Origin: Ignavibacteriota bacterium
Lineage (GTDB): Bacteria > Bacteroidota > Ignavibacteria > Palsa-1295
Reading direction: 5' to 3'
Length of the DNA stretch: 64,000 bases
Assembly (NCBI GenBank): GCA_963787835.1
Contig: CAWBEI010000002.1
Coordinates: 224,001-288,000, forward strand
Shown here: piece by piece, positions 29,740 through 59,650 of the stretch
How positions within the stretch are numbered: position 1 is the first letter of the stretch
Layout of the letters: each line of letters opens with the position of its first letter
The notes under the pieces: model-generated
What the model was told of the DNA's origin: nothing
Seen by the model: only the letters and a program-made list of their open reading frames with translations
The model's database searches: none
Translations under genes and position numbers: made by a program

Positions 29740-31077
29740 TTACAACTCGTACACCGAAATACTCACATTGGAAATAGTCACCGGACCAGAACCATCGGTA
29801 TTTTGCACGGACATATCGATCCAGATCTTCGCGGTCTGCTTCGTCGTGATAATTCCACTCAGCGAAAAAGGAAATTGGTTGACGTTATTGTGTGATTCCT
29901 GTAATTGTGCCGCCCCCAACGTTGTGCCCGTTGCTGTGACGCCATTGCCAGGTGCAGGAAACGTCGTTCCATACCGAAGCTGTAAGGAGCTTTGGTTTGG
30001 TGACGTACCCGATGTATTCAGCACGCTACCGGAGATGATGATAAAAAATAAACCGCTTCCTCCGGGGGTAATCGTGGCTGTACCACCCAATCCCATCATC
30101 ACGGCAGACGTGCTTGTGGTGGAAGCGGGATTCGATGGTGTGAACTGACCCACATTTACTGTGGCATTAGTAAAACTCGTTCCATTCGACTGCAGCACCT
30201 GACCGGCCGATCCAGACGTAGAAGGAAACGCAGTAGAGGTTGGAACATACGCTGTCCCATTTCCTTCAAGGATGTAGCCTGTCGTCCCTGTGCCGTTGAT
30301 CTTAAACCCCGTGGCAACATTAAGCACCCCAGCACCAGGATCTTTAGGGGTGGTAATGCCGAGCGTTGCGCCGCCGCTTGCATACAGATCAAAATCGGAC
30401 GCATAACCGCCATTATCTTGATTGTCCGAAATATCGAGATAGGAGGAATCGGTACTGGATGACGAAGTAAACGGGATGAGCTGCATGATCCAGTCCACCG
30501 GCTCATTCGTACCGCCCCACCCTTGCCCGTGCATGTGCAAGCGTGGCGACCACTGTTGAAGTGACGATGTCGCGGCGGTGGTATTGCTCAAAACAAGAGC
30601 ATCCACCGGTGCTGCGAGTGTTGAGGTCTCAGAAACATCCTGAGCAACCGTCCAGGTGTTCGCATGAGGAAGATCGATCTCAAGTGGCGTGGGCGAAATA
30701 CCCTTTCCGGTGAGCGTGGTGCCATCCACATTCAACGTGGTCCACGAAGTGGTGGTACCGTTCGAGGTAATGAATTGATTCGGCGAACCGGCACCATAAC
30801 TATAAACGGGATTCGTCACCACCCACGAAAGGTTACCAGAGCCATCGTTGGTGAGAAACCCGTTCGCAACTTCGGTGGCTGGCAAAATGAAAGAATATGG
30901 GGCAGTCAGCGTGGGGGCGGCGAGCGTCACAGTCGCTGTTGTACTCGACCCAGTTCCCGCAAGAACAAGGGATTTAGCATACGTTTTATCATAGACCTGC
31001 GCGGACGCATACGGCATGCCGCACGTCATGAGGATGCAAAAAACCGCCAGTGCAAAAAGAGGGATCGTGTACTTCAT
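29740..31077 (-). CDS. Secreted fibre-like protein (YDK tag, head type 1), 445 aa
   Basis: Signal peptide then AQVYDKTYAKSLVLAG; T/S/G-rich body; paralog of the next three genes; ends VSISVYEL. Confidence 0.8.
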   Translation of the reverse strand: MKYTIPLFALAVFCILMTCGMPYASAQVYDKTYAKSLVLAGTGSSTTATVTLAAPTLTAPYSFILPATEVANGFLTNDGSGNLSWVVTNPVYSYGAGSPNQFITSNGTTTSWTTLNVDGTTLTGKGISPTPLEIDLPHANTWTVAQDVSETSTLAAPVDALVLSNTTAATSSLQQWSPRLHMHGQGWGGTNEPVDWIMQLIPFTSSSSTDSSYLDISDNQDNGGYASDFDLYASGGATLGITTPKDPGAGVLNVATGFKINGTGTTGYILEGNGTAYVPTSTAFPSTSGSAGQVLQSNGTSFTNATVNVGQFTPSNPASTTSTSAVMMGLGGTATITPGGSGLFFIIISGSVLNTSGTSPNQSSLQLRYGTTFPAPGNGVTATGTTLGAAQLQESHNNVNQFPFSLSGIITTKQTAKIWIDMSVQNTDGSGPVTISNVSISVYEL

Positions 31078-31081
31078 GTCG

Positions 31082-32467
31082 CTATTCTAATTCTACAATG
31101 GAAATAACGACACCGGTAAGCTGTGCATCGATAGGAGTTCCACCGGTGTAGATGGATGTAAGTGCGGGATCGACCCAATACGTGTTGCCAACGGTTAGTC
31201 CCGTAACAATGGCATTCAAGGTAAAGAACCATACGTTGTCGCCATTTGCCATGGTGGCCGTAATAGTGCTCCCGACGGCCGTACCCGAGTACGTTCCGTT
31301 TGCAGCATAGCCGTTGGCTGGTGGATAGTTGGTCCCCGTTGGGCCATAATGGATCTGGGCGCTCTCCCCAAAACCATCGGCAGTAGGATAGCCTTGTGGG
31401 AGGGTCATATTGCCAGTGATAAGGATCAGTACAACACCGCTGCCAGCAGGAGTGAACTGAGCCGTACTTCCTAAACCCATCATGACCCCGGTCGTATTGT
31501 TCGTTGTTTCCGCTGGATTCGTCGAGATCGTATATTGATGGTTGTATGGGAAGGCCGAGGTAAATCCACCCGTGGTGTTCGAAAAGATCACATTTCCTGC
31601 GCTGCCTGCAGTCGTCGGAAAGGTTGCTGATGAAGCGACGTAATCGGTCCCATTCCCAACGAGTACCTTGCCGGTACCGGCAGCGCCACCGATCTGCAAG
31701 CCCGTTCCAACATTGAGAATCCCCGCTCCCGGATCGGTGGGAGAAGTGATGCCCAACGTTGCGCCTCCACTGGCGAACACATCGAAACCACTCACATACG
31801 CTCCGCCATTCAGAGAATGTTCGAAATCGAGATACGAGGTCGTTGGGCTTGTGGATTCACTGATCGGCACAGCCTGAATGATCCAGTCTGCGGATTGACT
31901 GGCTGCGGCCCACCCCTGGCCGGTAAAATGCACCCGAGGTGCGTATTCCTGCGTGCCGGATGCCGCAGTGGTGGTATTCTCCAACAGGAGTGCATCCACC
32001 GGACTGGCTGCTGTTGATGTCAATGAAACGGTCTGAGCAGCAGACCACAAATTGCTGTGCGCAAGGTTCAGTGCTAGGTTCGACGTAATTCCATTGCCCG
32101 TGAGCAAGGCATCCGTCGAGAATGCAGTCCACCCGACAACACTGCTGTTGTTGGTAGTTGAAAACGTGTTGGCCGTTCCTGGGGTTAGGTCCGTGACGGG
32201 GGTGGGAATCACCCAGCTACATCCGCCGGTCGTGGTATTCGTAATCTGAAGCACTCCGCTGGCATTCGTGCCAGGGAACATGACAGGAATGCTTGCGCTC
32301 AAGGTCGGGGAAGAGATCGTCAGGGTATTCGTAAGATCCGTTCCGTTCCCAGCAAGCGTGATCGATTTCGCATACATCTTATCGAACGCTTGCGCATAAC
32401 TCCCCTGGCTCGTGCCAAGCAGAATGAGCACAATGGCTGCGACTCCAATAATGATCTTATGCGTCAT
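31082..32467 (-). CDS. Secreted fibre-like protein (YDK tag, head type 1), 461 aa
   Basis: Signal peptide then AQAFDKMYAKSITLAG; shares the QEYAPR.H..G.GW...DWI.Q block; ends VISIVELE. Confidence 0.8.
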   Translation of the reverse strand: MTHKIIIGVAAIVLILLGTSQGSYAQAFDKMYAKSITLAGNGTDLTNTLTISSPTLSASIPVMFPGTNASGVLQITNTTTGGCSWVIPTPVTDLTPGTANTFSTTNNSSVVGWTAFSTDALLTGNGITSNLALNLAHSNLWSAAQTVSLTSTAASPVDALLLENTTTAASGTQEYAPRVHFTGQGWAAASQSADWIIQAVPISESTSPTTSYLDFEHSLNGGAYVSGFDVFASGGATLGITSPTDPGAGILNVGTGLQIGGAAGTGKVLVGNGTDYVASSATFPTTAGSAGNVIFSNTTGGFTSAFPYNHQYTISTNPAETTNNTTGVMMGLGSTAQFTPAGSGVVLILITGNMTLPQGYPTADGFGESAQIHYGPTGTNYPPANGYAANGTYSGTAVGSTITATMANGDNVWFFTLNAIVTGLTVGNTYWVDPALTSIYTGGTPIDAQLTGVVISIVELE

Positions 32468-32473
32468 GGCCGT

Positions 32474-33814
32474 TCAAAATTCTATCACCGTGATCGTTAC
32501 GTTGTTGATGCTCGACGTAAAGGAAGTGGCTTCCGCCGTTAGATCAAGATCGATCCAGTAGGTGTTTGTGGATGACAATCCGGTAACAACGCTGGTTGCA
32601 CTGAAAAAAAAGTAGTTGTCCGCGCTATAACTCTGCTCGGAAACCAAAGAGCCAGTGGTGGTTCCCACAGGGCCTGTGGTTTGGTAGGTCGGGGCAGCAC
32701 CGGTCCCGAAGCAGATCTGTGCAGTCGAAATATCCGGGGGATTTCCGCTGCTGTTCCACAAATTCCCGGTGGCGATAATGAGCACCGTACCACTGAGCGA
32801 CGGTTTGAAGGTCGCAGTCCCCCCAAATCCAAGCATAACATTATCTTTACTGTTCGTAGTCACATACGGGCCAGCGGTGAAGGTAAAGTTCGTGGCATTG
32901 GGTGCGCCGGAAATAAAATTCGTACCGTCGGACCGAAGAATATTCCCGCTTGCGCCAGCCGACGCGGGGTAGGTTGCTGTGGAGGGAACGAAGTCCGTGC
33001 CGTTCCCGATCAACAGAGTTCCATTCGCCGCTGCGCCGTTAACTTTAATACCCGTGCCAAAACTTAATACTCCGCTGCCGGGGTCCGTCGGGGATGCAAT
33101 CCCGAGCGTGGCGCCACTGCTTGAAAAAAGATCGAAATCCGATGAATACCCGCCCGTACCGTTTTGTTGATCCTCGATGTCGAGATAGGAAGAGGTCGGA
33201 CTGCTGGAAGAATTGACAGGCACCACCTGCGCGATCCAGTCGATCGCTTCGCTCGAACCACCCCATCCCCGACCGTTCCAATGCAGGCGCGGCGAATATT
33301 CCTGCGTACCGGATGCTGCGGGAGTAGTATTGCTAAGCACAATTCCATCGGTCGAAGTGGCGCCGATGCTTTGAGATGAACCTTGCGCGGCCGTCCAGAC
33401 ATTCGTATGCGTGAGAATCATCGCAAGCGCCGTACTGACCCCGTTTCCGGTCAGCGTTACGCCATCGACGCCGAGCGAAGCCCATGCGATAGCGCTGCTG
33501 TTGTTGGTGATGAGAAACTGGTTTGCAGAACCGGTTGGAATATCACCCACAGGAAGCCCACTCCACGATAGCCCGCCGGAACCATTATTGACGAGCGCAC
33601 CCGCTGCGTTCGATGCCGGAAGCGTGAGTGTGATCGAACTGGTGGGGGTAGCTGCTGAGATCGTGAGCTTATTCGCCGTGCTCGTGCCGCCGCCAGCGAG
33701 AATGAGCGATTGAGCATATTTTTTATCGTACGCCTGGGCGCCAGCTCGCGTCGATATCCCTGCCGCAAATGCGAGCAGGGCTAAGCCAACCACGGCAAGG
33801 TTATTCACTTTCAT
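32474..33814 (-). CDS. Secreted fibre-like protein (YDK tag, head type 1), 446 aa
   Basis: Signal peptide then AQAYDKKYAQSLILAG; ends VTITVIEF. Confidence 0.8.
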   Translation of the reverse strand: MKVNNLAVVGLALLAFAAGISTRAGAQAYDKKYAQSLILAGGGTSTANKLTISAATPTSSITLTLPASNAAGALVNNGSGGLSWSGLPVGDIPTGSANQFLITNNSSAIAWASLGVDGVTLTGNGVSTALAMILTHTNVWTAAQGSSQSIGATSTDGIVLSNTTPAASGTQEYSPRLHWNGRGWGGSSEAIDWIAQVVPVNSSSSPTSSYLDIEDQQNGTGGYSSDFDLFSSSGATLGIASPTDPGSGVLSFGTGIKVNGAAANGTLLIGNGTDFVPSTATYPASAGASGNILRSDGTNFISGAPNATNFTFTAGPYVTTNSKDNVMLGFGGTATFKPSLSGTVLIIATGNLWNSSGNPPDISTAQICFGTGAAPTYQTTGPVGTTTGSLVSEQSYSADNYFFFSATSVVTGLSSTNTYWIDLDLTAEATSFTSSINNVTITVIEF

Positions 33815-34014
33815 GTGTTAGTGTACGATCCTGCGAATGATGTGGAACATCCCAGGACTTGGGGAAAAATCGTTCTTTCGATCAATTGCCAACGTTCGAG
33901 CAGCAATAAGCGAGTTATGCCATCCCCTGATTCAGCAACCTGATATCAAACGCTCTGGGGTGGTAATAGGTTTTCAGCCATTGTACAGTTCATAGAATGA
34001 AAATATTCCTATTG

Positions 34015-34446
34015 CTATTCAAGTTCAAACTGCTGCCATTGATGATCGAACCCGAACATTAGCAAATGAGTCTGCTGCCCTAACATTCCTTTTACCTGGG
34101 GATGATCGGATCGGTCAAAGAACAGCCGGAAAAACATTCTATTATGTGCGGAATTATCGCAAATCAGGATAAGGAATGTTCCGGGAGCCACATTATCCGT
34201 AGGAAGATAAACCGATACCACTCGGCTCGGCGTATCGTTTAACACCGGCAATCCGTTCAGCAAGTGCTGAACAGGCGGATAGGAATTAAGTTCTTTATCT
34301 TCGGTGAGTGTATATTGTGCCGAAGGAAATACAAAAGGCCCGCCGCCCGATGAAACGGAGATCGGAGGCGGAATCGTGCGCGGTGCGGAGCAACCGCTCC
34401 ACACACAGGTTGCAACAGTGAAAAGCCCTGCCGCCATTCTAGACAT
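34015..34446 (-). CDS. Small hypothetical lipoprotein inside the fibre array
   Basis: ATG 34446 lies 14 nt after the upstream stop; MSRMAAGLFTVATCVWSGC lipobox-like signal. Confidence 0.6.
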   Translation of the reverse strand: MSRMAAGLFTVATCVWSGCSAPRTIPPPISVSSGGGPFVFPSAQYTLTEDKELNSYPPVQHLLNGLPVLNDTPSRVVSVYLPTDNVAPGTFLILICDNSAHNRMFFRLFFDRSDHPQVKGMLGQQTHLLMFGFDHQWQQFELE

Positions 34447-34460
34447 GTAGGGCAATCCTC

Positions 34461-36149
34461 TTATGGCAGTTCTATAACCGTGAACTGCACATTGTTCAAG
34501 GCCGAGCCCTGGCACCCACTCGCCCAGGTAGTCCAACCGTCAATCCAATAGGAGTGACCAACGGTCAAGCCGCTAACATAGGCGCTGACACAGAACGGCG
34601 CCTGCTCATCATGCTGACCAGACTCGACAGAAATAGTGCAAAGAGGTCCTAATGACGTTGCTGTTGAAGTAGCTGGTGTGGTACCCGCATGAGTTGGTGC
34701 TACATTCGTGGCGGCATCCTCATAATACATTTGGACCGCCGCTAAGGCGGTGGCTGTGCTGCTGCTGCTATTGGACATAAACAAATTTCCGGTGATGTTT
34801 ATGAGAAACCTTCCCGTCGATTTTGGCGTGAACGTATAGCTAGCCGAGTGTGAAAGCCCGACCCATTGCCCACTGGTCGTGGTATCATTACCTGGAGATG
34901 CGATGTTCGTGGACTGGTTATAATACTGCGGCGGTGAAGTGCTGCTGTTCCACTGCATGGTCACGGTATTACCCGTGATGTTTGAAACCTCCATTAATTG
35001 GCCGACTGCAGTAGGACCAGCAGCGGGAAGGATGTACGTGTATCCCGTAGTAGCCGCACCACCCTGAATCGTGGTTACAGTGGTTCCCGCCGTGGAATTT
35101 GCAAGGGCAAGAGATCCAGTCGTCGATGCAGCCTTGCCAAGGGTAAGCGCACCGGCAGAAGAAACCGACCAGTTCGAACTGGTGCCGAGGATATCCGTAT
35201 TGGTCGTCCCACCGGTAACATTGAGCGTGAGTCCGGTATTCGTTGCCGTGGTACCACTCCACGATCCGGTGGAACTTAAAGAAAGACCGGTCTTCGCAAT
35301 GCTTGTCGTGCTGCTGGTTGCATCGTTCAGGATGGTCGCTTCAGTGAAGGCGGTCGTCTTAGCAGGAGCGCCAGCCGTAACATCGAACCCTGCGCTGGTT
35401 TGCGCGGTGTATTGATTCGCGATAAAAGCGCCAGTCACGTCAGCAGCGACCAGCGAACGGAACGTTGGTGCCCCTGCTGATCCATTTGGCGCAGCAAATA
35501 CTGTGTTCGCCGCCTCAGAAGCCAGCGTGCCTGTTAATGTGCCCGTCGTAGTGACTGGGGAACCTGATATGGTAAAGATCGAGGGAAGTGCAAGGGCTAC
35601 GCTTGTCACGCCGGTATTAGCTATGGAGATGGAGCCGACGCCGTTCGTCACCGATACTCCGGTTCCTGCTGTAAGAGTGGTGAGCGAGTAATTCGTACCA
35701 TTCCCGATGAGCAGCTGACCGTTCGTAGGTGTCGTCGTCAGCCCCGTGCCGCCATTAGCGACCGGCAGTGCTGTGCCAGAAAGGGTTAACGCAAGCGTGC
35801 CGTTACTCGTGATCGGAGAACCACTGATCGAAAGGAAACTCGGAACCGTCATAGCAACTGAAGTGACAGTACCAATCGCCGACGTGGACCACGTTAGCCC
35901 ACCCGTTGTAGTATTAGAAACAAGGGCCAAACCGGTGGAACCCGGCAACGCCGCTGGCAGGGTAAGCGAGAAAGCTGTAGTCGGCGTCGGAGCAAGGATG
36001 GTGACCGTATGAACAACATCCGCCTGACTCCCTGCGAGCGTGATCGATTTAGCATACTCTTTATCCACTGCTTGTGCATGGGCACGCCCAGCCATGCCCA
36101 CTACCGCAGCGAGCATGATCAAATATACAAAGAAATGTTTGGTCTTCAT
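34461..36149 (-). CDS. Secreted fibre-like protein (YDK tag, head type 1), 562 aa
   Basis: AQAVDKEYAKSITLAG; tail-fibre-like GTVTSVAMTVPSFLS...LPVANGGTG...GQLLIGNG; ends VQFTVIELP. Confidence 0.82.
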   Translation of the reverse strand: MKTKHFFVYLIMLAAVVGMAGRAHAQAVDKEYAKSITLAGSQADVVHTVTILAPTPTTAFSLTLPAALPGSTGLALVSNTTTGGLTWSTSAIGTVTSVAMTVPSFLSISGSPITSNGTLALTLSGTALPVANGGTGLTTTPTNGQLLIGNGTNYSLTTLTAGTGVSVTNGVGSISIANTGVTSVALALPSIFTISGSPVTTTGTLTGTLASEAANTVFAAPNGSAGAPTFRSLVAADVTGAFIANQYTAQTSAGFDVTAGAPAKTTAFTEATILNDATSSTTSIAKTGLSLSSTGSWSGTTATNTGLTLNVTGGTTNTDILGTSSNWSVSSAGALTLGKAASTTGSLALANSTAGTTVTTIQGGAATTGYTYILPAAGPTAVGQLMEVSNITGNTVTMQWNSSTSPPQYYNQSTNIASPGNDTTTSGQWVGLSHSASYTFTPKSTGRFLINITGNLFMSNSSSSTATALAAVQMYYEDAATNVAPTHAGTTPATSTATSLGPLCTISVESGQHDEQAPFCVSAYVSGLTVGHSYWIDGWTTWASGCQGSALNNVQFTVIELP

Positions 36150-36191
36150 GTATTAATTTTTACCGTTAATTCCGAAGATCTGACAGGATGC

Positions 36192-39100
36192 TTATTTGGA
36201 TGAGACCACTCTCCACCCGCCGGTAGTATTATAGGTGGAATCATAGATCAATGTCAATATTCCGTCGGGCGCGAGGATCAGGCTATTACCGCTACCACCG
36301 ACGAGATGAATCACGTCCCCAGCCGTACCTGCATCACTATTGAAAGTGATATTATAACTGCCCGTATTCACTAGGATCATGACGCGACCGTCCGCGCCAC
36401 CTGTGATACCGTTTACAGTAGCTCCCGACGGACCTCCTGCGGAAATTTTGAAATAGCTGTTGGTTGTGCTTAACGCCCAGGCATTAGTGCTGCTACCGCT
36501 GGTTAGTTGCGTTGGGCTGTTAGAAGTCAGCGCCGCGCCACCGAATGTTTGGGTACCGGTCCAGGTGTTAGCATTGGTAAGATTGATGCCGAGTTCATGC
36601 GCTGCAACGGTGCCTACCTGCAAGGTTGCATCGTAATTGAGCACATCCGCATTCAGGGTTTTATTAGCGGTGGAACTATTCACCGAACTCACAAGCGCTG
36701 CAGCCTGCGCCGCCGTCGTTGGGAGGGTTTGTGTACCGGTCCAAGTATTAGCATGAGTGACATCAAGCGTGAGCGTAGTGGTTCCACCAAGGGCAACCGA
36801 ACCGCCGCCGGCCAAACCAGAACCCGCCGTGACCGTAAGGCTCGGATTTGCAAGTGCTGAGTTCGGAACCGCAGAAGCGTTGATCGTCACCGCGCCTGTT
36901 CCTCCGCTTAAGCTGATACCCGTGCCAGCGACTGCGGAAGTTACACCTGTATTAGAAAGTGTTACCGTACCGCCAAGCGAAACCGGCGAACCCGATACCC
37001 CAAGACCCGTACCGCCTGTCACCGTGATGCTCGAATTGGCAAGCGCAGAGTTCGGAACCGACGTCGCGTTGACCGTGATCGACCCAGCGCCGTTCGTGAT
37101 TGAAATTCCCGTGCCACTCGTAAGTGTTCCAAGCGAAAGAGTATTACCCGTCGTGTTGCCGATCAGCAACTGGCCGTTCGTGTAAGAGGTCTGACCCGTG
37201 CCGCCATTGGCAACCGGAAGGGCTGTGCCCGAAAGTGTTACTCCAAAGGTGCCACTTGATGTAATCGTTGCAGGAGAAACGGAAAGAAATGTTGGAACCG
37301 TCATGCCGACCGAAGTGACCGACCCGCTATTCGTAGTATTCAGCACTGTACCCGTAAAACTGAGACCCGAGCCAAGCGTGATTTCCTCCGGAACCTGATT
37401 TGTAGAGGCCGTCGGATTACCGAGTAGCGTAGTGTGCGTCTCGCTCTGCATCTTGGCATAAGTAACCTTATTCGCCCCGATCGTAATGAGACCGGCATCG
37501 GTAATCGTCGCATCACCGCTCATTGCAACAGGGTTCCACGCAGGTGTGGATGAATTATAGATGAGCATGTTTGCATCTGCCACGCTTGCCATCGAACCGA
37601 GTGGGGATCCGTTGATCTTCTTTACAGCCGTTGTGCCCTGCGGTCCCGTTACATCACCGGCGAGATTACCACTGAAATTCGTTGCCGTAGTTCCTGCGGG
37701 AAGCGTCACGGTTCCCGTGAAGTTCACCGTGCCAGCAACCGTAGTGTTGCTCGGGCCGGTGTTATTGCCAATGTTAATGTTCATGGCACCGGAGGTATCG
37801 CCAATATTGATAGGATTCGTACCGGTCACATCGATATCGGTCGCTCCTCCCGTTGTGCGCAGCGTTCCAGTGTTGTTAAAGCTGGTATTCGAGGTCAGTG
37901 TGGTGAAAGCACCCGTGCCTGGAGTGGTTGCACCGACCGTGCCATTGAATGCTCCCGCGATGTTGTTGCTCGCGTTCGTGGCTGTGACGGCACCGGTGAG
38001 CGTTGAAGCATTGGTAACCGTGAGGCCTGTGCCTGCGCCATTGAAGGTAGCATCTCCGCCAACCGTCATGGCATTCGCTACGGCAAATGTTGTTGCATGA
38101 GAACCGTTGACCGTTGCCTGTGCTACGTGTGTCGAGGTGTTCTGAAGCGTCACGTCCTGCGTCATCATCGCGGTATCGGCAGTGGCCGAAGTAGCATCGC
38201 CGATGAAAATATCATTCTTCGCTAAACCGAGAGATGAGGAGGATAACGAACCTGCGGGAAGCGTCACCGTGCCAGTGAAGTTAACCGTGCCGGCAAGCGT
38301 GGTCACGCTCGGGCCGGTATTATTGCCAATGTTGATGTTCATGGCACCGGAGGTATCGCCAATATTGATGGGATTTGTGCCCGTCGTACTGATATCTGTC
38401 GTTCCCGTAGTGCGCAGCGTTCCGGTCGTTTGGATGCTTCCGGTCGTATTGATCACCGTCGAACCGCCGATATTGCCGGCGCCCGTGATCTGTGCTGCCG
38501 GATAGGTCAGTCCGCTCGGGAGCGTCTGTGACCATTGCGGCGTGCCGATCGGAGATGCCGCATTAGTGATAAGAACCGAATTAGCCGATGGGGCAAGTGG
38601 CGTAGCTACGTTGCTCGTATTGCCGACCAACATATATTGATTGGTAAGCCCGATAGAACCCGCTGTAACTGAACCGGAAGGTAACGTAACCGTGCCCGTG
38701 AAACTTACGGCACCGGCGAGATATGTGGTGCTGCTGTCGCCGGGACTGCCAGCGCTGCCGTTATTACCGATGGTAACCACACCGCCTGTGCCCGCAGTCG
38801 CATCGATACTCGTGTTCGCAGCCGGCGCTGAAGCCGGGCTGTTAATATTTGTGTTGCCATAGACATTGGTCGTGCTCGTGCTGTTACCAATGTTGTTCGT
38901 TCCACCCGTCGCGCTGTTATCAATATTGGTGGTCGGATTCGAACCGCTGTTATTGAGGCCACCACCGCTCGGTGTGAGGATTCCACCTGTGAAGCTTGCC
39001 TGACCGGTATTCGTAACATACCATGAATCACCTGTGATGTCATTCACACCGGAACCCGGCGTGGCAGCATTCGACAGGGTAAGCGGCGTTCCAGATCCAG

Positions 39101-39644
39101 CACCACTTGCTGGGGTGTTAATCGTTTGCTTAGCCGTCCATGTGTTAGAATTCGCAAGGTTGATACCAAGTTTATTTGAACTAACCGTCAATGTGGAATT
39201 GATGTTGAGGACATTAGCATCTAACGAGCCAACAGCAACTTGACCTGTTCCACTGCCATAGTTATTGAGCGCGCCAACAATATCCGTTCCAGCAGTATTT
39301 TCAATGACTGTCGCCAGGGAGGTTCCCCCAACATCACCGGATAAGTTCACAGTGAGTCCGGAGGCTGGGTTGGTCCAGCTAAGACCGCCCGTCGTGGTGT
39401 TCATGGTAAGGACATATCCGACAACGCCACCAGGCTCCGTGCCAGGGAACGTCAGCGTGAACGATCCTGCGGCCGGAGTCGCCGCCGAGATCGAAAGCGT
39501 GTGCTTCGTATCCGTCCCATTGCCGGCGAGGACCACCCCTGTGGCATGAACGGAATCGTAGGTTTGAGAAAAGGCGCGAGGGGCAATGCCAGCCAGTAAG
39601 GCAAGCGTCACCGCAACCGTCAAAAAAGTGATCTTGTTTTTCAT
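36192..39644 (-). CDS. Large secreted fibre-like protein (head type 2), about 1150 aa
   Basis: MKNKITF signal, SQTYDSVHATGVVLAG; internal repeats; ends LIYDSTYNTTGGWRVVSSK. Confidence 0.85.
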   Translation of the reverse strand: MKNKITFLTVAVTLALLAGIAPRAFSQTYDSVHATGVVLAGNGTDTKHTLSISAATPAAGSFTLTFPGTEPGGVVGYVLTMNTTTGGLSWTNPASGLTVNLSGDVGGTSLATVIENTAGTDIVGALNNYGSGTGQVAVGSLDANVLNINSTLTVSSNKLGINLANSNTWTAKQTINTPASGAGSGTPLTLSNAATPGSGVNDITGDSWYVTNTGQASFTGGILTPSGGGLNNSGSNPTTNIDNSATGGTNNIGNSTSTTNVYGNTNINSPASAPAANTSIDATAGTGGVVTIGNNGSAGSPGDSSTTYLAGAVSFTGTVTLPSGSVTAGSIGLTNQYMLVGNTSNVATPLAPSANSVLITNAASPIGTPQWSQTLPSGLTYPAAQITGAGNIGGSTVINTTGSIQTTGTLRTTGTTDISTTGTNPINIGDTSGAMNINIGNNTGPSVTTLAGTVNFTGTVTLPAGSLSSSSLGLAKNDIFIGDATSATADTAMMTQDVTLQNTSTHVAQATVNGSHATTFAVANAMTVGGDATFNGAGTGLTVTNASTLTGAVTATNASNNIAGAFNGTVGATTPGTGAFTTLTSNTSFNNTGTLRTTGGATDIDVTGTNPINIGDTSGAMNINIGNNTGPSNTTVAGTVNFTGTVTLPAGTTATNFSGNLAGDVTGPQGTTAVKKINGSPLGSMASVADANMLIYNSSTPAWNPVAMSGDATITDAGLITIGANKVTYAKMQSETHTTLLGNPTASTNQVPEEITLGSGLSFTGTVLNTTNSGSVTSVGMTVPTFLSVSPATITSSGTFGVTLSGTALPVANGGTGQTSYTNGQLLIGNTTGNTLSLGTLTSGTGISITNGAGSITVNATSVPNSALANSSITVTGGTGLGVSGSPVSLGGTVTLSNTGVTSAVAGTGISLSGGTGAVTINASAVPNSALANPSLTVTAGSGLAGGGSVALGGTTTLTLDVTHANTWTGTQTLPTTAAQAAALVSSVNSSTANKTLNADVLNYDATLQVGTVAAHELGINLTNANTWTGTQTFGGAALTSNSPTQLTSGSSTNAWALSTTNSYFKISAGGPSGATVNGITGGADGRVMILVNTGSYNITFNSDAGTAGDVIHLVGGSGNSLILAPDGILTLIYDSTYNTTGGWRVVSSK

Positions 39645-39780
39645 TGCACTATTCTGAATCATATGGTTGGGACCCTGCTCGCGCACAACGTCCCCTGAAA
39701 ATTAAATTCCAAAAAATCGTTCAACTACTAATAACCGTGTCGTGATCTATTGGAAAAAGATCCCGAGGATCCGGGCCGCA

Positions 39781-39806
39781 GCAGCACATCGTTGATGATG
39801 TGCTGC
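39781..39806. other. Intergenic perfect 10-bp stem-loop
   Basis: gcagcacatc-gttgat-gatgtgctgc with partial outer pairing, between two fibre genes; no U-tract. Confidence 0.6.
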
Positions 39807-39872
39807 AATGCGCGACCCGATCTCTTCGATATTCATTTCCATTACTCTTATCCTTCGATGCGTCGATCGCGA

Positions 39873-42800
39873 TTACTCCGCACCGATAAGACGCCACTTC
39901 GAACCGTCATAGATGAGCGTGACGGATCCACCGGGTGTCATAATCACATCACCGCCGTTAAGGACAAGGCTACCGTTGCTATGCAGCGTGATGTTGTTCG
40001 TTGGGTCGGTATTCACAAGCGTGATGATCTGACCCGCCGTCGTATTCGCACCCGTAATACTGTTAACCGTAACCGGCGCTGCCGTAGCTGTTAGCAGGTA
40101 AGCCGAATTGCTGGTGGTAAGCGTAAGCGTTGCCGCTGCAGCAACCGTTGCAGACGAAAGAGCCGTGCTTCCGAGGGTTGTCTGGCCAACCGCCGTAAGA
40201 GTTCCATTTAGCTGCGTAGCGTTCGTAACGGTAAAGCCACTTGCGCCGCTTGCTGCGGAAACAGTTACCTTCCCAACATCAGGTGTACCCGCCGTGAAAA
40301 CGATCCCGGCATCACCCGTCATCCCAACGTCCTCGGCATCACTGCTGGCATTGCCAACAAACAGATGACTGGTCGTCAGGCTAAGTGAACTCGGCGTTAC
40401 CGAACCCGCAGGCAACTTGACGGTACCTGTAAAATCGACATTGCCAGTAAGATTTACATCGCCATTGATGGTGGTTAAGCTGCTATCGAGTGTTCCGATT
40501 GTATGAGCTGTCCCGTTGTTACCAATGTTGATGTTTCCGAGCGTTGTTCCTGTACCCGCGTTAATGTTCGTGGTTCCCGTTGCACCGGCTGGGGACGGTA
40601 CATCGATCGTCGTGTTGCCCGTCGAGGTAACCGTGGAGAACGTCTGCAACGTGCTCCAGGAGTTACTATAAGCATCGTTGATGCTCAAGGTCGTACCAGA
40701 GCCAAGAACTGCAGAACCTCCACCGGAAAGTCCCGAACCGGCAGTGACCGTCGTCGCATCGTTCGCAAGATCGCCGTTCGTAACAGCCGAAGGTTGGATG
40801 GTCGTTTTGCCGGTGTTGTCAATATGCACATCACCACTCATCGCAACGCCTGTCGCTATGCTGGGAGTCGCGCCGTTGCCAACGAAGATGTCGGCAGAGG
40901 CAAGGCCGAGGTTAAGATCGCCGGCCGGGATATTCACGGCACCCGTGAAATTCACTGCGCCGGCGATATTCGTCGTGCTGCTGTCGCCAGGGTTTCCGAC
41001 GCTACCGTTGTTACCAATGTTGATCACGCCCTCGCTGCCCACTCCAGCATCGAGGTTTGTCGTGGAATTTACGATGCTGCCGGTAGTTGAGTTGTTAATG
41101 TTCGTATTCGCACCGTTGATCGTCGTCGTGCTACCAGTACCAGATGAGCCGATCGTGTTCGAGATATTGGAGGCATTACCATCCGATGTGTTCACGCCAC
41201 CGTTGAAGGTCGCTACACCCGTGTTTGTAACGTTCCATGTGTTGCCAGTGCCGCTAACATCGAGTGACGTGCCTGAAACATCCGTGTTATTCAAAGACAG
41301 CGCTGCACCCGCGACTCCGTTGGTACTACTCGAAGCCGTAAGCGTTGGGATCGTTAAGTCGCTTGGAAGCGTCGTTGCCCATTCTGGCGTGGTGTGGTCG
41401 CTTCCAGCTGTGATGAACACCGAATTGGAAGATGGCGCAAGTGGCGCAGCCACGTTCGGAGTTCCGTTGTTGCCTACAAAGATGTTCTCATACGCAAGGC
41501 CGAGGTTAAGATCGCCGGCAGGAATATTAACCGCGCCAGTGAAATTAACCGTGCCAGCCATATTCGTCGTGCTGCTGTCGCCAGGGGTTGTCCCACCGTT
41601 GTTACCGATGTTGATCACACCTTCAGTGCCAGTTCCCGCATCGATGTTAGTCGTCGAGTTTACGACCGTATTGGCAGGCGAGTTGTTGAGGTTGGCATTC
41701 CCCGTCTCAGTCAAACCACCATTGAACGTCTGCAAGGTGCTCCAGGTGTTCCCATAAGCATCGTTAATGCTCAAGGTCGTACCAGAGCCAAGAACTGCAG
41801 AACCTCCACCGGAAAGTCCCGAACCGGCAGTGACCGTCGTCGCATCGTTCGCAAGATCGCCGTTCGTAACAGCCGAAGGTTGGATGGTCGTTTTGCCGGT
41901 GTTGTCAATATGTACGTCACCGCTCATCGCAACGCCTGTTGCTATGCTGGGAGTAGCGCCGTTGCCAACGAAGATGTCGGCAGAGGCAAGGCCGAGGTTA
42001 AGATCGCCCGCTGGGATATTCACCGTTCCAGTGAAATTAACTGCACCAGCAAGATAGGTTGTGCTGCTGTCGCTGTAAGGAGGTGTAGCACCGGCAGTGC
42101 CGTTGTTACCAATCGTGACGACCCCCATCGAGCCCGTCGCGTCGATGTCTGTATTATTATCCGGCCCTGTTGCTGGGCTGTTAATATTCGTGTTGCCCAG
42201 CACAGTGGTCGTGCTCGGGCCGGCGCTATTGCCAATGTTAATGTTCATGGCGCCGGAGGTATCACCAATATTGACAGGACTCGTACCCGTCGTATTGATA
42301 TCTGCCGCTCCTCCTCCAGTAGTGCGAAGGATTCCGGTTGTCTGGATGCTACCCGTCGTGTTGATAACCGTCGAACCGCCGATATTGCCAGCGCCGGTGA
42401 TCTGTGCAGCCGGGTAGGTCAATCCGCTCGGAAGCGTCTGAGACCATTGCGGCGTGCCGATCGGAGATGCCGCATTGGTGATAAGAACCGAATTGGCCGA
42501 TGGCGCAAGTGGCGTAGCATCGTTGCTTGTATTACCAACCAACATGTATTGATTGGTAAGCCCGATCGAACCTGCCGTGACCGAGCCGGAAGGCAATTGA
42601 ACCGTTCCAGTGAAATCAACCGCACCGGCGAGATACGTCGTGCTGCTATCTCCGGAACCAGTGCCATTATTACCAATTGTTACGACGCCCTTATCGCCAG
42701 TCGCATCAATGTCGGTGTTAGCATCCGGCCCCGTAACTGGGCTGTTAATATTCGTGTTGCCATAGACATTGGTTGTGCTCGTGCTGTTACCAATGTTGTT

Positions 42801-43532
42801 CGTACCACCCGTCGCGCTATTATCAATGTTGGTGGTCGGATTCGAACCACTGTTATTGAGGCCACCGCCGCTTGGCGTGAGGATTCCACCAGAGAAGCTT
42901 GCCTGGCCCTGGTTCGTTACATACCATGAGTCGCCAGAAATGTCATCACTGCCCGCCGCACCAGTATTTGTTACCGTAAGTGGGGTGGTAGCCGTTGAGG
43001 AGCTGAAGTTTTGCGCACCCGTCCATGTGTTAGGATTCGTAAGGTTGATACCGAGAGCATTGGTGCTAACCGTCAACGTGCTATTGATGTCCAGCACATT
43101 AGCATCCAAGGAGCCAACGGCAACTTGGCCGATTCCACTGCCGTAGTTATTGAGTGCTCCAACGATGTCCGTTCCAGCGGTATTTTCAATGACCGTAGCT
43201 GCGGACGTCCCCCCCACATCACCGCTCAAATTCACGGTGAGTCCGGAGGCAGGGTTGGTCCAGCTCAGACCCCCCGTCGTGGTGTTCATGGTAAGCACAT
43301 ACCCGACAACGCCGCCAGGCTCCGTGCCCGGGAACGTCAGCGTGAACGAGTTTGCCGCAGGAACGGCCGCGTTAAGCGTCACCGTTTTTCCGGTGTTCGT
43401 TCCCCCTCCGGCAAGTATCACTTCCGTGCTGAAGTCGGATTTATAGGTTTGCGCGTTCACAGTAGTGGCCGGCAGCAGCATCGCATATGCAGCAAGCATC
43501 GCGACTGGAATCGCAAGTTTAAGGTATTTCAT
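39873..43532 (-). CDS. Large secreted fibre-like protein (head type 2), 1219 aa
   Basis: AQTYKSDFSTEVILAG; N-terminal third closely similar to the 36192-39644 protein; repeated GDSSTT...VNFTG modules; ends LIYDGSKWRLIGAE. Confidence 0.85.
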   Translation of the reverse strand: MKYLKLAIPVAMLAAYAMLLPATTVNAQTYKSDFSTEVILAGGGTNTGKTVTLNAAVPAANSFTLTFPGTEPGGVVGYVLTMNTTTGGLSWTNPASGLTVNLSGDVGGTSAATVIENTAGTDIVGALNNYGSGIGQVAVGSLDANVLDINSTLTVSTNALGINLTNPNTWTGAQNFSSSTATTPLTVTNTGAAGSDDISGDSWYVTNQGQASFSGGILTPSGGGLNNSGSNPTTNIDNSATGGTNNIGNSTSTTNVYGNTNINSPVTGPDANTDIDATGDKGVVTIGNNGTGSGDSSTTYLAGAVDFTGTVQLPSGSVTAGSIGLTNQYMLVGNTSNDATPLAPSANSVLITNAASPIGTPQWSQTLPSGLTYPAAQITGAGNIGGSTVINTTGSIQTTGILRTTGGGAADINTTGTSPVNIGDTSGAMNINIGNSAGPSTTTVLGNTNINSPATGPDNNTDIDATGSMGVVTIGNNGTAGATPPYSDSSTTYLAGAVNFTGTVNIPAGDLNLGLASADIFVGNGATPSIATGVAMSGDVHIDNTGKTTIQPSAVTNGDLANDATTVTAGSGLSGGGSAVLGSGTTLSINDAYGNTWSTLQTFNGGLTETGNANLNNSPANTVVNSTTNIDAGTGTEGVINIGNNGGTTPGDSSTTNMAGTVNFTGAVNIPAGDLNLGLAYENIFVGNNGTPNVAAPLAPSSNSVFITAGSDHTTPEWATTLPSDLTIPTLTASSSTNGVAGAALSLNNTDVSGTSLDVSGTGNTWNVTNTGVATFNGGVNTSDGNASNISNTIGSSGTGSTTTINGANTNINNSTTGSIVNSTTNLDAGVGSEGVINIGNNGSVGNPGDSSTTNIAGAVNFTGAVNIPAGDLNLGLASADIFVGNGATPSIATGVAMSGDVHIDNTGKTTIQPSAVTNGDLANDATTVTAGSGLSGGGSAVLGSGTTLSINDAYSNSWSTLQTFSTVTSTGNTTIDVPSPAGATGTTNINAGTGTTLGNINIGNNGTAHTIGTLDSSLTTINGDVNLTGNVDFTGTVKLPAGSVTPSSLSLTTSHLFVGNASSDAEDVGMTGDAGIVFTAGTPDVGKVTVSAASGASGFTVTNATQLNGTLTAVGQTTLGSTALSSATVAAAATLTLTTSNSAYLLTATAAPVTVNSITGANTTAGQIITLVNTDPTNNITLHSNGSLVLNGGDVIMTPGGSVTLIYDGSKWRLIGAE
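40681..42050 (-). repeat. Near-identical internal duplication of about 0.27-0.3 kb, offset 1086 bp
   Basis: AGDLNLGLASADIFVGNGATPSIA...LSINDAY is encoded twice (blocks begin at + positions 40681 and 41767). Confidence 0.85.
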
Positions 43533-43616: not shown

Positions 43617-45017
43617 CTAATCGTTTGTCGAGACCAGTACCCACTTACCAAGGTGAGATGGGTCCGCATTGTCGTTCGTGTCGTAAAGAAATGTTGCCGC
43701 CCCTTTTTGGCCAAGTAGAATGGGCTTGCCGCCAGGGAGATCGAACTCGTCCACGGAAGCAGAATTCGCATCCAGGTTCGTGATCTGGATGATGTCGCCA
43801 GGATCGCTGCTCACGTTTGCGATCGTTACCATTCTACCGTCTGGAACGCTCGTGCTTGAAATTCCGCTGACGTTGATCTGCTTCGCAGGACTATTGGTGT
43901 TCGAAAGACGAATATACCCAACGGAATTAGCAACTGTATAAGGACTTTGATCCGTCGAGACGGCGTCAGATGCAATTGTTGGGGTTACTGTCGCCCCGTT
44001 GGTGATGTAGGACACCGCATGGGTGGTAGGATCCACGCCAAGCACCTGTCCGTCTGTACCCTGAGGAAGTCTTGAGAGGGCCGTTGTAGAACTTGCAACA
44101 AGAATGTCTCCGGTGGCGTACGTGCTATTGCCAGTTCCTCCTGCGACAGCGTTGACGGGTGCTGCCGGAGCATTCGCATTCAGCGAGGCCGCGATGTCGG
44201 TGCTGGCCGATTGGTTCGCCGCGATCGTTGGATTTGGATAGGTATTTGCAAGGTCGCCTCCGGCATTTCCGGAGGGAGCCGCTCCGATGGCGGTAAGTTG
44301 TCCGCCTGGGGTGACCGTGATGGTCGTATTATCAACAGAAACCACGCCAACGGAACTGGACGTTGCGATCGGAAGGTCTCCCGTGGGAATCGTTCCGGTG
44401 TTCGTTAAATTATCATTAGCATCGGTAAAGACCGGCATCGAGGCCGTAAGGCCAGCGATGTTCACATTTCCGGAGGTAACCGAAAGCGCGGTACCGCTCG
44501 CAACGGTATTGCTCGCTACGATCGGTGCGTTCGCATTAGATATATTCGAAAAGCTTTTTTGACCACTAATTGCCTGAGCGCCCTGGGTCATGACGAAACT
44601 CGCATTGGCTCCGGATGCTGGGATTGTGTCGATAAATGTGGATGTGCCTGGGTTCGCGGCCTGAATTTTAACATAGCCGTTTCCTCCAACATTGTAGAAT
44701 TTGAGCGTTCCCGTAAGCGGGGTGTAGGGAGTGAGCGCATTAGATGGTTCGCCGATATTAGCGTTTTGAAGATGAAGTATTTGCTCCTCACCCATATTGA
44801 GATTGGAGACGGAACGGCCGTTAAACGTGAGCGTGTTCGAGTTTGAACCGCCGAGGACCAGATTCCCGTCGATCGTGGTGTTGCCAGAAGATGTATTAAG
44901 AAATACATCCTGCTGAACGGTCAGGGTTCCATTGATGACTTGATTCTGCGCGAATACCGTATCAACTCCTCCGAGCAGGAAGAGGCACGCTAAGCCTATT
45001 TTAGTTATTTTTTGCAT
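43617..45017 (-). CDS. Secreted fibre-like protein (head type 2), about 466 aa
   Basis: Signal peptide AQNQVING; PSGNAGGDLANTYPNPT and GGTGNSTYATGDILVA modules; ends FLYD...GKWVLVSTND. Confidence 0.8.
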   Translation of the reverse strand: MQKITKIGLACLFLLGGVDTVFAQNQVINGTLTVQQDVFLNTSSGNTTIDGNLVLGGSNSNTLTFNGRSVSNLNMGEEQILHLQNANIGEPSNALTPYTPLTGTLKFYNVGGNGYVKIQAANPGTSTFIDTIPASGANASFVMTQGAQAISGQKSFSNISNANAPIVASNTVASGTALSVTSGNVNIAGLTASMPVFTDANDNLTNTGTIPTGDLPIATSSSVGVVSVDNTTITVTPGGQLTAIGAAPSGNAGGDLANTYPNPTIAANQSASTDIAASLNANAPAAPVNAVAGGTGNSTYATGDILVASSTTALSRLPQGTDGQVLGVDPTTHAVSYITNGATVTPTIASDAVSTDQSPYTVANSVGYIRLSNTNSPAKQINVSGISSTSVPDGRMVTIANVSSDPGDIIQITNLDANSASVDEFDLPGGKPILLGQKGAATFLYDTNDNADPSHLGKWVLVSTND

Positions 45018-45112
45018 GTTTCGCAATGTTCACAAAATTCGCACTTGTAACCCTCATCCAGCCCCGCGATGCATCACCATAATGCGGCGCGAAACCGGAA
45101 AAAAGACCGAAC

Positions 45113-48100
45113 CTATCGGCTCGGATTCACAATTATATAACCTACATTCACCGTCTTATTTGCCGTTGAAGTTTTACCGCTCAGTACATTCTGAGTAAGC
45201 ACCAAAGTAAAGTGACCGCTTGTCTGCCCCGTCGCTTGCACCGTGTATGTTGACTTTCCAGCATCGGGATCATTTTGAACCGTCGCCATAATAATGCTTG
45301 TAGATGAGCAGTACTCATTGCCCACCTGAAAATCTGCTTCTTGAATGTAAGGACCAGATTCAGATGCAAATCCCGACGCAAGTTGAACCAACCCCGAAGG
45401 GCCTTCCGATCCGGATACAGCGTTGTTTACCGTCGTGACACCGCTGCCGTTTTCGCCGTTCGGATTCGACGTCATTCCCATCGTCAGCTCACCGTTCTCG
45501 ACATCCAGCGCCACATTTGTTTGGCCGTCTCCCGTTTCCCCATTTCCGCCCTGCGCAAGCACGCCGATGCTTTCAGTGTTGGTGGCAGAATTGCCGCTCG
45601 CAAGACCCCAAACGCCAATTACGGTTCTTCCCGAGGAATTACCTGCGGTTCCGACCGCCTCACCACGAACGCCAAAGGAGCCCGTGAAACCAGAGCCGCC
45701 AAAATTATAGTCATTATTCAGTTCACTATACGAGGTGGTCGCGTTGGTTACACCATAGATTCCAGAAATAGAGCCTTGTGCAAGAATACCGTTCGGGTAA
45801 TTAGCACTTGTAATTCCGATAGCAGCACCTGAATGGTTTGTATTGTCGGAGTTCGAACCCGCCATCTTGATCGAGTAAGTAGGAGTCGATGCCGTGCTGG
45901 AAAGCCCACCCGCAGTAAAAATATCACCTGAAACGCCCTCCAATTTGGCTGCGATGTCCGGTGCATGTGTGGTACCTACAAGGAGGCCAAAAGAACCCGC
46001 TGTAGCAGTAGTCGTTCCGTTGACGGTAATTCCAGCCGAGGATGCACCCGGTGTGAAAGTCGCCGCGATTGCAGTGTTGGTCGATGTGCTGCCGGTTGCA
46101 GAAACATTCAGACCGGTTGCAGTTCCACCGGATGTAGCAATAGACTTAATAGTGGCCCCCAACGCGCTTGCAACACCCGCAGAAGGGTATTCCACATCAA
46201 ATAGCTCATCTCCCGTAGTCGCCGTAATCTGTGCATTGGCAGGAGCGACATTATAATTCACGGCTGTACCGGTGTTCACAGTATTAAGCACTGTACCGTT
46301 AAAGGTTAGCCCCGATCCCAGCGTGATCTCGCTCGGAGCGGCCGATGCTCCGGTCGGATTACCGAGAAGAGTGACCGTGCTTTCCTGCTGAATATCGCCA
46401 TACGTCACTGCATTCGCGGTGATCGATGTGGCATTACCAACCGACGTCACCGGACCCGTCAGGTTCGCATCCGTCGTTACCGTGGCCGCATTACCAGAGA
46501 TGCTGATCCCCGCTGTGCCCGCCGAAATATTCGCCGCCGTCAGGTTCGTGAGTGCCGAGCCATTACCCGCAGCATAGTTCGTACCTGTTAACGTATTCAT
46601 CGCCGCAGTCACCGTGATCGGCGCAGCGCCCGTGAACGTCACACCGTTGATCGTTGCACCCGGAGAAAGCGCGGAAGCCGTCGCTGCATTACCCGATGTG
46701 TTCGACGTGATCGTAGCCGGAAGGTCCGTCGCTGCGATCGAACGGAAGGCCGGAACACTGCCCGCCGTCGTATTCGCAAAAAATTGATTTGCACTCGCTA
46801 CCGTCGATAATGTAAACGACAGTGCAGGAGTCGATGTCGGCGTGGCAACCGACGTCGTGAACAATGGGCTCAAGTTGCCGCTCGAGAACGAGGTAACTGT
46901 GCCGCCGCTACCGGTGGCTGTCAGGGTCGTTCCACTAAAGGCAAGACCGGAGCCGAGCGTGATCTCGCTCGGAGCGGCCGATGCTCCGGTCGGATTACCG
47001 AGAAGAGTGACCGTGCTTTCCTGCTGAATATCGCCATACGTCACTGCATTCGCGGTGATCGATGTGGCATTACCAACCGACGTCACCGGACCCGTCAGGT
47101 TCGCATCCGTCGTTACCGTGGCCGCATTACCAGAGATGCTGATCCCCGCTGTGCCCGCCGAAATATTCGCCGCCGTCAGGTTCGTGAGTGCCGAGCCATT
47201 ACCCGCAGCATAGTTCGTACCTGTTAACGTATTCATCGCCGCAGTCACCGTGATCGGCGCAGCGCCCGTGAACGTCACACCGTTGATCGTTGCACCCGGA
47301 GAAAGCGCGGAAGCCGTCGCTGCATTACCCGATGTGTTCGACGTGATCGTAGCCGGAAGATCCGTTGCCGCGATCGAACGGAACGCCGGAGTGCTGCCAC
47401 CGGTCGTGTTCGCGAAAAATTGATTCGCTGCAGTCACCGTCGATAATGTGAATGACAGTGCAGGAGTCGATGTCGGCGTGGCAACCGACGTCGTGAACAA
47501 TGGGCTCAAGTTGCCGCTCGAGAACGAGGTAACTGTGCCGCCGCTACCGGTGGCTGTCAGGGTCGTTCCACTAAAGGCAAGACCGGAGCCGAGCGTGATC
47601 TCGCTCGGAGCGGCCGATGCTCCGGTCGGATTACCGAGAAGGGTGACCGTACTTTCCTTCTGAATATCGCCGTACGTCACTGCATTCGCCGTGATCGATG
47701 TGGCATTACCAACCGACGTGACCGGACCCGTCAGGTTCGCATCCGTCGTTACCGTCGCCGCATTGCCACTGGTGCTGTTCGTGATCGCGCCGCTGCATCG
47801 ATAACCGATGCCGAGATGCTGCCCACTGTCGGGTTCGGATAGGTGCCCGTCAGGCCGCCGCCCGCTGTGCCGCTGGGTGCCGCTGTCACCGTAATGTTCG
47901 AACCGCCTGTGAAGAGTACACCATTGATCTGGGCACCCGGAGAAAGCGCGGAAGCCGTCGCTGCATTACCCGATGTGTTCGATGTGATCGTAGCCGGAAG
48001 GTCCGTTGCTGCGATCGAACGGAAGGCCGGAACACTGCCCGCCGTCGTATTCGCAAAAAATTGATTTGCACTCGCTACCGTCGATAATGTGAATGACAGT

Positions 48101-59549: not shown

Positions 59550-59650
59550 AGGGGTATTCAGGGAAAAAACAACCAAAAGTGACACAACGAAAAATAGATG
59601 TTCGCTACGTCTTCAACGAGTGAAATGCGTGTTCAAAGAACTTATTTTTC

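Follow-up and report, generated by a model that had tools for sequence, protein, structure and literature searches.

Six adjacent phage-fibre-like genes of a soil Ignavibacteriota bacterium suggest a plug-and-socket joint between consecutively encoded fibres

A short N-terminal tag carried by six adjacent genes (F1-F6) is best read as a plug that would dock a trimeric fibre onto the C-terminal beta-sandwich, or socket, of the fibre trimer encoded upstream, giving a chain F7-F6-F5 capped by one of F1-F4. We regard this predicted arrangement as likely. The six genes encode phage-fibre-like proteins of a soil bacterium, which are probably exposed at its surface.

Results

The six open reading frames and N-termini quoted in the original prediction are present on the minus strand of the window (the whole 64,000-nucleotide stretch of DNA analysed), where the fibre genes follow one another in the order F7, F6, F5 and then F4 to F1 (Table 1). 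The stretch is matched, mostly at 99% identity or higher, by four soil metagenome DNA runs of one study, which may be its source. Each of F1-F6 begins with a Sec-type signal peptide followed by Gln (assigned by eye and by a simple rule, without SignalP). Pfam matches among F1-F6 were confined to the C-terminus of F6 (PF25692), and none was obtained for the whole F7 protein; the C-terminal domain of F5 and F6 is common to F7 as well. The six fibres do not seem equivalent: gene order points to F6 and F5 as likely linkers and to F1-F4 as likely tips.

Table 1. Positions of the fibre genes and their predicted parts within the window
Feature	Position	Strand	Description
F1	29740..31077	-	likely tip fibre, 445 aa; signal peptide, tag, core, shaft, head
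F1 tag and core	30810-30999	-	type-C tag
F1 head	~29743-30165	-	TNF/C1q-like
F2	31082..32467	-	likely tip fibre, 461 aa
F2 tag and core	32198-32392	-	type-C tag
F2 head	~31085-31546	-	F1 head family
F3	32474..33814	-	likely tip fibre, 446 aa
F3 tag and core	33551-33736	-	type-C tag
F3 plug	33461-33736	-	used in co-fold
F3 head	~32477-32923	-	F1 head family
F4	34461..36149	-	likely tip fibre, 562 aa; gene directly behind F5 socket
F4 tag and core	35880-36074	-	type-C tag
F4 head	~34464-34922	-	F1 head family
F5	36192..39686	-	likely linker fibre, 1164 aa counted from GTG; likely true start is ATG near 39641
F5 tag and core	39366-39566	-	type-B tag
F5 socket	36195..36530	-	C-terminal beta-sandwich; PF25692, 27 bits (cut-off 25)
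F6	39873..43532	-	likely linker fibre, 1219 aa
F6 tag and core	43251-43451	-	type-A tag
F6 socket	~39876-40190	-	C-terminal; PF25692, 32.1 bits (cut-off 25)
F7 ('X')	43617..45026	-	putative base or adaptor fibre, 469 aa; untagged, with a different N-terminus
F7 socket	~43620-43985	-	C-terminal; clade always preceding type-A tags
F9/F8	45113..50982	-	repeat-rich lead gene for a fibre (DUF5907 repeats), divided in two by a 1-nt frameshift near 47790; lacks a full tag and a socket

The N-terminal module of F1-F6 (~63 residues) is similar above chance in all 15 pairs, as judged against 200 shuffles, and this holds for its two parts taken separately (z 3.3-8.0 for residues 1-14, z 3.3-19.6 for residues 15-63). 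We conclude from these comparisons and the profile searches below that it consists of a lineage-specific tag (residues ~1-14) and a generic fibre repeat (~15-63, the core). A profile built from 48 modules matches 8,003 of 1.84 billion representative sequences. The best 150 of these are large fibres with 4-32 copies, aligned mostly over positions 18-61, and among them 1,196 of 1,226 matches are internal, the other 30 starting within the first 80 residues. The core also occurs inside proteins of Bdellovibrio, Patescibacteria and Bacteroidota and in a fibre of cyanophage P-SCSP1u. The tag behaves otherwise: in the regions read from 21 genomes, all 64 tag-containing matches lie near the start of the frame with a small residue at position -1, 63 of them with an upstream hydrophobic stretch and 62 with a Met 17-45 residues upstream. 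Gln1 and Leu13 are found in every tag and an aromatic residue at position 3 in most. Gln at +1 is common in secreted proteins of Bacteroidota and is thus not specific by itself; a search for one type of glutaminyl cyclase (PF05096) found none. The module as a whole has no match in Pfam or NCBIfam; in PHROGs one of the 48 modules gave a weak match, and an Atlas search returned unnamed clusters and a single Mtd_N row (0.90, with a low shared count), which is at most a lead.

These observations modify the original prediction, which had described a constant domain opening with a 'YDKxYAKS' tag behind the signal peptide, while shafts and heads vary. The motif fits F1-F4 loosely (consensus QxxDKxYA(K/Q)S, tag identity 64-86%), but F5 and F6 carry other types (QTYDSVHAT and QTYKSDFST, 21-50% identical to the tags of F1-F4). 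The constancy of the module is borne out by the pairwise comparisons, but most of its length is a widespread internal repeat, so that a single domain restricted to N-termini had to be rejected. Internal occurrence in unrelated or phage proteins, which had been named as evidence against a docking, sorting or polymerisation module, is true of the core, with copies inside giant fibres and a phage fibre, and not of the tag. Variation of the remaining parts is seen in the 64 residues after the module, which align in just 4 of the 15 pairs; on the other hand, shafts and heads differ less than had been described, as F1-F3 are whole-length paralogues (42-56% identical in both shaft blocks compared), F5 and F6 share a block of 95% identity, and F1-F4 have heads of one family. 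The F1 head is modelled (pLDDT 91.9) as a TNF/C1q-like jelly roll resembling the PLTL lectin (Z 12.1, rmsd 2.6, 121 residues aligned), Pgp3 (Z 11.8) and the Bdellovibrio tip Bd2734 (Z 10.8); alignment with it suggests the same fold for the F2-F4 heads. The tips may act as adhesins, probably glycan-binding ones.

PF25692 (Phage_depo_C) is matched at E 0.1 or better by 38 of 45 aligned sockets. The model of the F5 sandwich (pLDDT 93) has as its best fold match the C-terminal domain of a phage tailspike (24qj, Z 9.8, rmsd 2.5, 86 aligned), followed by 9f4a (Z 7.2) and TSP4 (Z 6.8), the top rows all belonging to the gp9/gp10/TSP4 XD1-type group and the next unrelated row standing at Z 3.9; these values (6.8-9.8) are middling and most fall below the caution level of the tool (Z 8). 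The matches include a capsid spike, CpaA and gp10. The match to TSP4 spans residues 79-178, which correspond to XD1, and no XD2 or XD3 range appears among the matches. In the part of PMC8825819 available to us, XD1 is described as a spacer in gp9, gp10 and TSP4, and its fold as glycan-binding in CpaA and StcE, so the fold itself offers no precedent for docking. An assignment of the socket as an XD2/XD3-type docking domain was dropped, as the match is to XD1 (PMC8825819, same part).

The strongest regularity lies in gene order. The loci start with an X gene, whose product has a variable N-terminus (at least five different ones occur) and a C-terminal sandwich of ~105 residues. It is followed by an A gene, with a QTYKxD-type tag at the N-terminus and the same sandwich at the C-terminus, and then by B and sometimes C. 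Later tagged genes end in a sandwich if a tagged gene of the next type comes after them; otherwise they carry other heads. The source genome contains a second such locus (contig C4), and a genome scan showed all six of its terminal sandwiches to be directly followed by a tagged gene. Six of its ten tags lie directly behind a sandwich, three (F3-F1) belong to the same run without being directly behind a socket, and one stands alone. In regions picked by the tag, 45 of 46 terminal sandwiches have a tag behind them at a distance of 101-526 nt; conversely, the 64 tags comprise 45 directly behind a socket, 10 later in runs and 9 alone or at contig ends. One genome combines a single socket-then-tag locus with five genes that carry the same tag type and stand alone on other contigs.

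Since regions chosen by the tag are biased, we also searched 200 genomes of the class with the sandwich only. This gave 11 matches outside the family, in 10 genomes, seven of which are terminal, with a signal peptide and a QTY tag coming next (in three further families); two of these tags reach just 18 and 24 bits with the tag profile. In the other four, one strong terminal sandwich is followed by mdh, one by a fibre with another lead, and two are internal. An earlier restriction of the system to one family (0 of 16 other families with the first profile) is thereby overturned. In metagenomes, the socket-then-tag order was seen in all eight loci at 44% identity or higher (six new, two repeating known proteins), while three weak phage-like loci of the 11 found had no tagged follower, nor had five viral sandwich loci (all read by eye). 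Counts within the family are partly circular, as the profiles were built from coupled loci, and the relatives are not independent. No match was obtained outside the class at E 1e-17 in 401 genomes of the phylum, for each of which up to 11 candidates were scored.

Not every member of the sandwich family behaves as a socket. In 40 loci fetched for lower-scoring sandwich matches (six weak ones excluded), none of 26 terminal sandwiches precedes a tag, and 45 further copies are internal. The internal copies continue into other sequence, and a fused socket-plus-plug (Rosetta stone) protein was accordingly discarded as a candidate. A tblastn search for phage homologues of the F7 socket returned none. 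In a tree of 117 domains (110 columns, supported by SH-aLRT alone), 64 generic sandwiches form a clade (SH-aLRT 96) that includes none of the 45 followed by a tag; the other eight rows are long or unresolved.

To the extent that a co-fold may be taken as a guide, the F5 socket would bind the F3 plug. Three F5 sandwiches and three F3 N-termini, the only pair folded and with trimers imposed, gave ipSAE values of 0.91, 0.92 and 0.91, against 0.00 for the best of three controls; the controls were unrelated proteins, and close cousins can also pass the score mark. Of solved pairs, 116 of 157 reach this mark, and of mismatched pairs 2 of 215, figures that apply only roughly to a six-chain job with custom alignments. 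At least 95% of contacts are common to the runs, with partner pLDDT of at least 84. A similar complex was not found by sequence, and the pass may reflect memory of a structural analogue. At the predicted interface, plug residues 1-5, 7, 9, 14, 18 and 20 meet socket residues 60, 76-78, 82-87, 89-92, 108 and 111-112. The three tags are thus placed against strand 82-87 of the socket trimer, its loops 76-78 and 89-92 and its C-terminus, a contact list that would suit docking by strand addition.

Sockets and tags also appear to be matched by type. The 21 X sockets form a clade (SH-aLRT 93) and all precede type-A tags, in which Lys4 is present in 22 of 22 (partly by definition of the type) and Thr9 in 21 of 22. 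The F5 socket groups with its counterpart from another genome, G006 (SH-aLRT 99), and both lie ahead of type-C tags. Across genomes, the tag modules cluster according to type, and do so less clearly without the tag (6 versus 12 changes). Coupled and generic sandwiches also differ in their interface columns, residue 76 being mostly Leu in the former and Thr or Cys in the latter. Lys or Arg at socket residue 89 occurs ahead of 15 of 19 tags with Asp6 and ahead of none of the 26 others, a pattern representing few independent events and weakened because the relatives are not independent. A proposed charge pairing at socket residue 107 was dropped, as this residue lies outside the predicted interface. 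From these patterns we infer type-specific joints, with the X socket receiving tag A, the A socket tag B and the F5 socket tag C.

Discussion

In the proposed assembly, each fibre protein would cross the inner membrane by Sec and then trimerise, the ~45-residue core behind the tag forming an ordinary trimeric fibre knob. The three tags of a trimer would dock on the trimeric socket of the fibre whose gene lies upstream. The resulting jointed chain F7-F6-F5 would be capped by any one of the four interchangeable tips F1-F4 and displayed on the cell surface, its base held by the F7 N-terminus or through F9/F8. Exchangeable tips fit the presence of four tips that share a tag type and follow a single socket, as well as the genome with five stand-alone genes of the same type. 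The original idea of a docking module for interchangeable fibres is thus upheld insofar as the tag lies at the predicted interface and several tips of one type follow a single socket gene. It fares less well as to the single platform, the likely partner being the C-terminal sandwich of the upstream fibre instead of a baseplate in the outer membrane or made of lipoprotein. The suggested roles in sorting or polymerisation found no support. A broader version of the docking model, in which a Gram-negative lineage (Kapabacteria class) joins separately exported phage-type trimers in gene order by orthogonal tag-socket pairs, as a typed relay, and a genome-wide pool of tips serves one stalk, has in our view slightly less than an even chance.

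Several other explanations have to be weighed against the docking model. A conserved operon without any physical joint, where the sandwich serves as a head for binding receptors or glycans and each protein makes a fibre of its own, appears unlikely, even though CpaA and StcE use the same fold to bind glycans, a phage tailspike is capped by it, generic terminal sandwiches occur without a tagged follower, and F1-F3 are paralogous over their whole length. It would have the socket-then-tag junction inherited as one block of DNA while shafts were shuffled. The confident tag-sandwich interface of the co-fold speaks against it, as do the recurrence of the junction in four families, two or three times per locus and with matching subtypes, and the other heads found on the tagged genes that end a run. 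Alternatively, the tag might be an export or folding signal for a secretion or assembly factor, with the fibres attached separately to a common surface platform, which we consider improbable. A single signal of this kind would need no types that track the upstream socket, F7 and F9 lack the tag, and among the neighbours listed for the loci read by eye no conserved membrane protein or lipoprotein of the sort originally expected was seen, the flanks being housekeeping genes such as hflX, mdh and mutL. The constant position of the tag at the mature N-terminus (64 of 64) and the existence of stand-alone tagged genes would agree with such a signal, as would the absence from F1-F9 of the T9SS C-terminal domain (PF18962), which elsewhere in the genome is over the cut-off in ~149 of 150 scored matches, none of them in fibre genes.

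A promiscuous joint, where any tag fits any coupled socket and chains may be self-extending (F6 or F5 polymerising alone) or mixed, so that gene order is not chain order, seems to us the least probable reading. It could draw on the residues common to the tags (Gln1 and Leu13 in all, the aromatic at 3 in most), on the plug and socket carried together by F5 and F6, as in the self-polymerising F-ENA subunit, and on the close cousins that pass the co-fold mark. The strong conservation of the type-A tags, always behind the X clade, argues against it, and the residue-89 pattern likewise suggests matched surfaces.

The closest parallels to the docking model, drawn here from the available parts of the papers cited, differ from it in their components. 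In the F-ENA/F-Anchor/F-BclA system of Bacillus endospores, trimers are joined axially by N-terminal hooks on the preceding C-terminal trimer, the anchor has a C-terminal docking domain, and a C1q/TNF-headed tip uses the same hook (PMC12357932). Our fibres would resemble it in their predicted plug on the preceding trimer (from the F5/F3 co-fold) and in the TNF/C1q-like tip. The docking domain, however, is DUF4183 there and PF25692 here, and DUF4183 was absent from Pfam scans of the proteins, sockets and plugs. The shafts of the F-ENA system (collagen GXY in anchor and tip) contrast with the phage-fibre repeats of our proteins, whose translations have neither a Pfam match to collagen nor GXY runs. 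F-ENA decorates a Gram-positive spore whereas our proteins have Sec signal peptides in a Gram-negative host, and one hook motif builds its homopolymer whereas two or three typed joints apparently act in series here (PMC12357932, same part). The best reading is that the joint works like F-ENA hook docking but with other domains.

The mosaic adhesive trimer (MAT) fibres of Bdellovibrio are likewise chromosomal phage-fibre-like mosaics (PMC10769870), Bdellovibrio fibres contain our core repeat internally, and the tip fold resembles the C-terminal domain of Bd2734. MATs share an invariant N-terminal domain (PMC10769870, available text), which is absent from F1-F9; a profile of it, from the N-termini of seven Bdellovibrio fibres picked by a motif, matched none of F1-F10 and four other genes of the genome. 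In the same text, gene mosaicism accounts for the variation of MAT tips within one chain, separate fibres are not described as being chained, and the surface partner is left unidentified (PMC10769870). The neck fibre gp82-gp81-gp80 of cyanophage A-1(L) also consists of operon-encoded trimers joined head-to-tail via N-terminal elements, and its far end is a distal bead that bears a binding module (PMC10966104, in part); this likeness is one of description, and the neck fibre differs in belonging to a phage virion, in its globular beads and in ~14 repeats of one subunit. Branched tailspike complexes (T4 gp9/gp10, CBA120 TSP4) dock swappable receptor-binding trimers via XD2/XD3, with XD1 as spacer, according to the available part of PMC8825819, whereas our XD1-like domain lies at the C-terminus and is predicted to be the site of docking itself. 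PMC13730344, as far as available, describes a different rope-and-dimer fibre. No description of this plug-socket system was found in the literature searched, subscription papers and supplements being outside its scope.

These genomes, and Bdellovibrio too, are rich in phage-fibre-like proteins, and how these are attached and how their tips are swapped is a standing question. If true, the typed relay would represent a new assembly route for bacterial appendages, a docking role for the XD1-type sandwich and a natural set of orthogonal trimer connectors. The joint proposed at this locus would also assign a binding function to a domain hitherto regarded as a spacer or as a head that binds glycans, and its tags could be used in protein engineering if the types are indeed orthogonal. 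A joint this small and concrete (112 plus ~65 residues) would allow these bacteria to lengthen a fibre or change its specificity after translation.

A possible internal promoter and gene integrity within the fibre cluster

Within the end of F5, a linker gene of the fibre cluster, lies a perfect TTGACA-18-TATAAT site, from which, judging by sequence, the downstream tip genes could be expressed separately as from a putative promoter; such sites numbered 19 against 13.9 expected, and the consensus may not be that of this lineage.

At the leading end of the cluster, F9 and F8 are a single gene, divided by a 1-nt difference near 47790 as compared with two sister repeat copies. Since the frames of hflX and of a PAS histidine kinase gene in the window are split as well, assembly indels are suggested as the cause.

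Neither the 173-aa ORF between F4 and F3, which may encode a small lipoprotein (a guess from its sequence), nor a Gly/Ser/Thr-rich fibre-like gene with a signal peptide had a match in Pfam. The product of the latter carries a QVRQTALYLDD lead, and similar leads are found on some X proteins (the untagged type that precedes tagged types A and B in such loci).

Features of the window and of other loci
Feature	Coordinates	Strand	Remark
TTGACA-18-TATAAT site	36228-36257	-	~80 nt ahead of F4
F9/F8	45113-50982	-	divided frame
hflX	55431-56731		frame split
PAS histidine kinase gene	51610-55036		frame split
173-aa ORF	34015-34536	-	probable start internal to listed frame
Fibre-like gene	58266-59585	-	
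VGYIIVNP-type domain	45113-45500	-	ahead of X gene (43617-45026)
Locus L001	4198-17449 (G000:C4)		
Locus L002	5642-6934 (G000:C2:801641-802933)		
Locus L003	G000:C4:370974-383486		
Locus L164	11524-15111		three short genes

Further fibre loci and a candidate second joint

The same genome (G000) holds a second complete X-A-B-tip locus (L001), whose last gene contains three internal sandwiches and a frameshift. It also has a stand-alone tagged gene (L002), which adjoins a phosphate transport operon and in which the core (the generic fibre repeat behind the tag) recurs once internally, and a 4,171-residue frame (L003) with an N-terminal domain like that of the Bdellovibrio mosaic adhesive trimer (MAT) fibres (E 1e-5), which is matched more weakly in three more genes.

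In another family, the socket-then-tag pair of L164 is adjoined by three short genes, which we take to resemble phage tail-collar or microcystin-dependent proteins.

Upstream of the X gene in several loci (the window, L015, L018 and L022), the preceding gene product has a distinct C-terminal domain, ending roughly in VGYIIVNP, and L036, L045, L049, L051, L053 and L062 show comparable fixed gene pairs whose leads are of other kinds. The VGYIIVNP-type domain may represent a second kind of joint.
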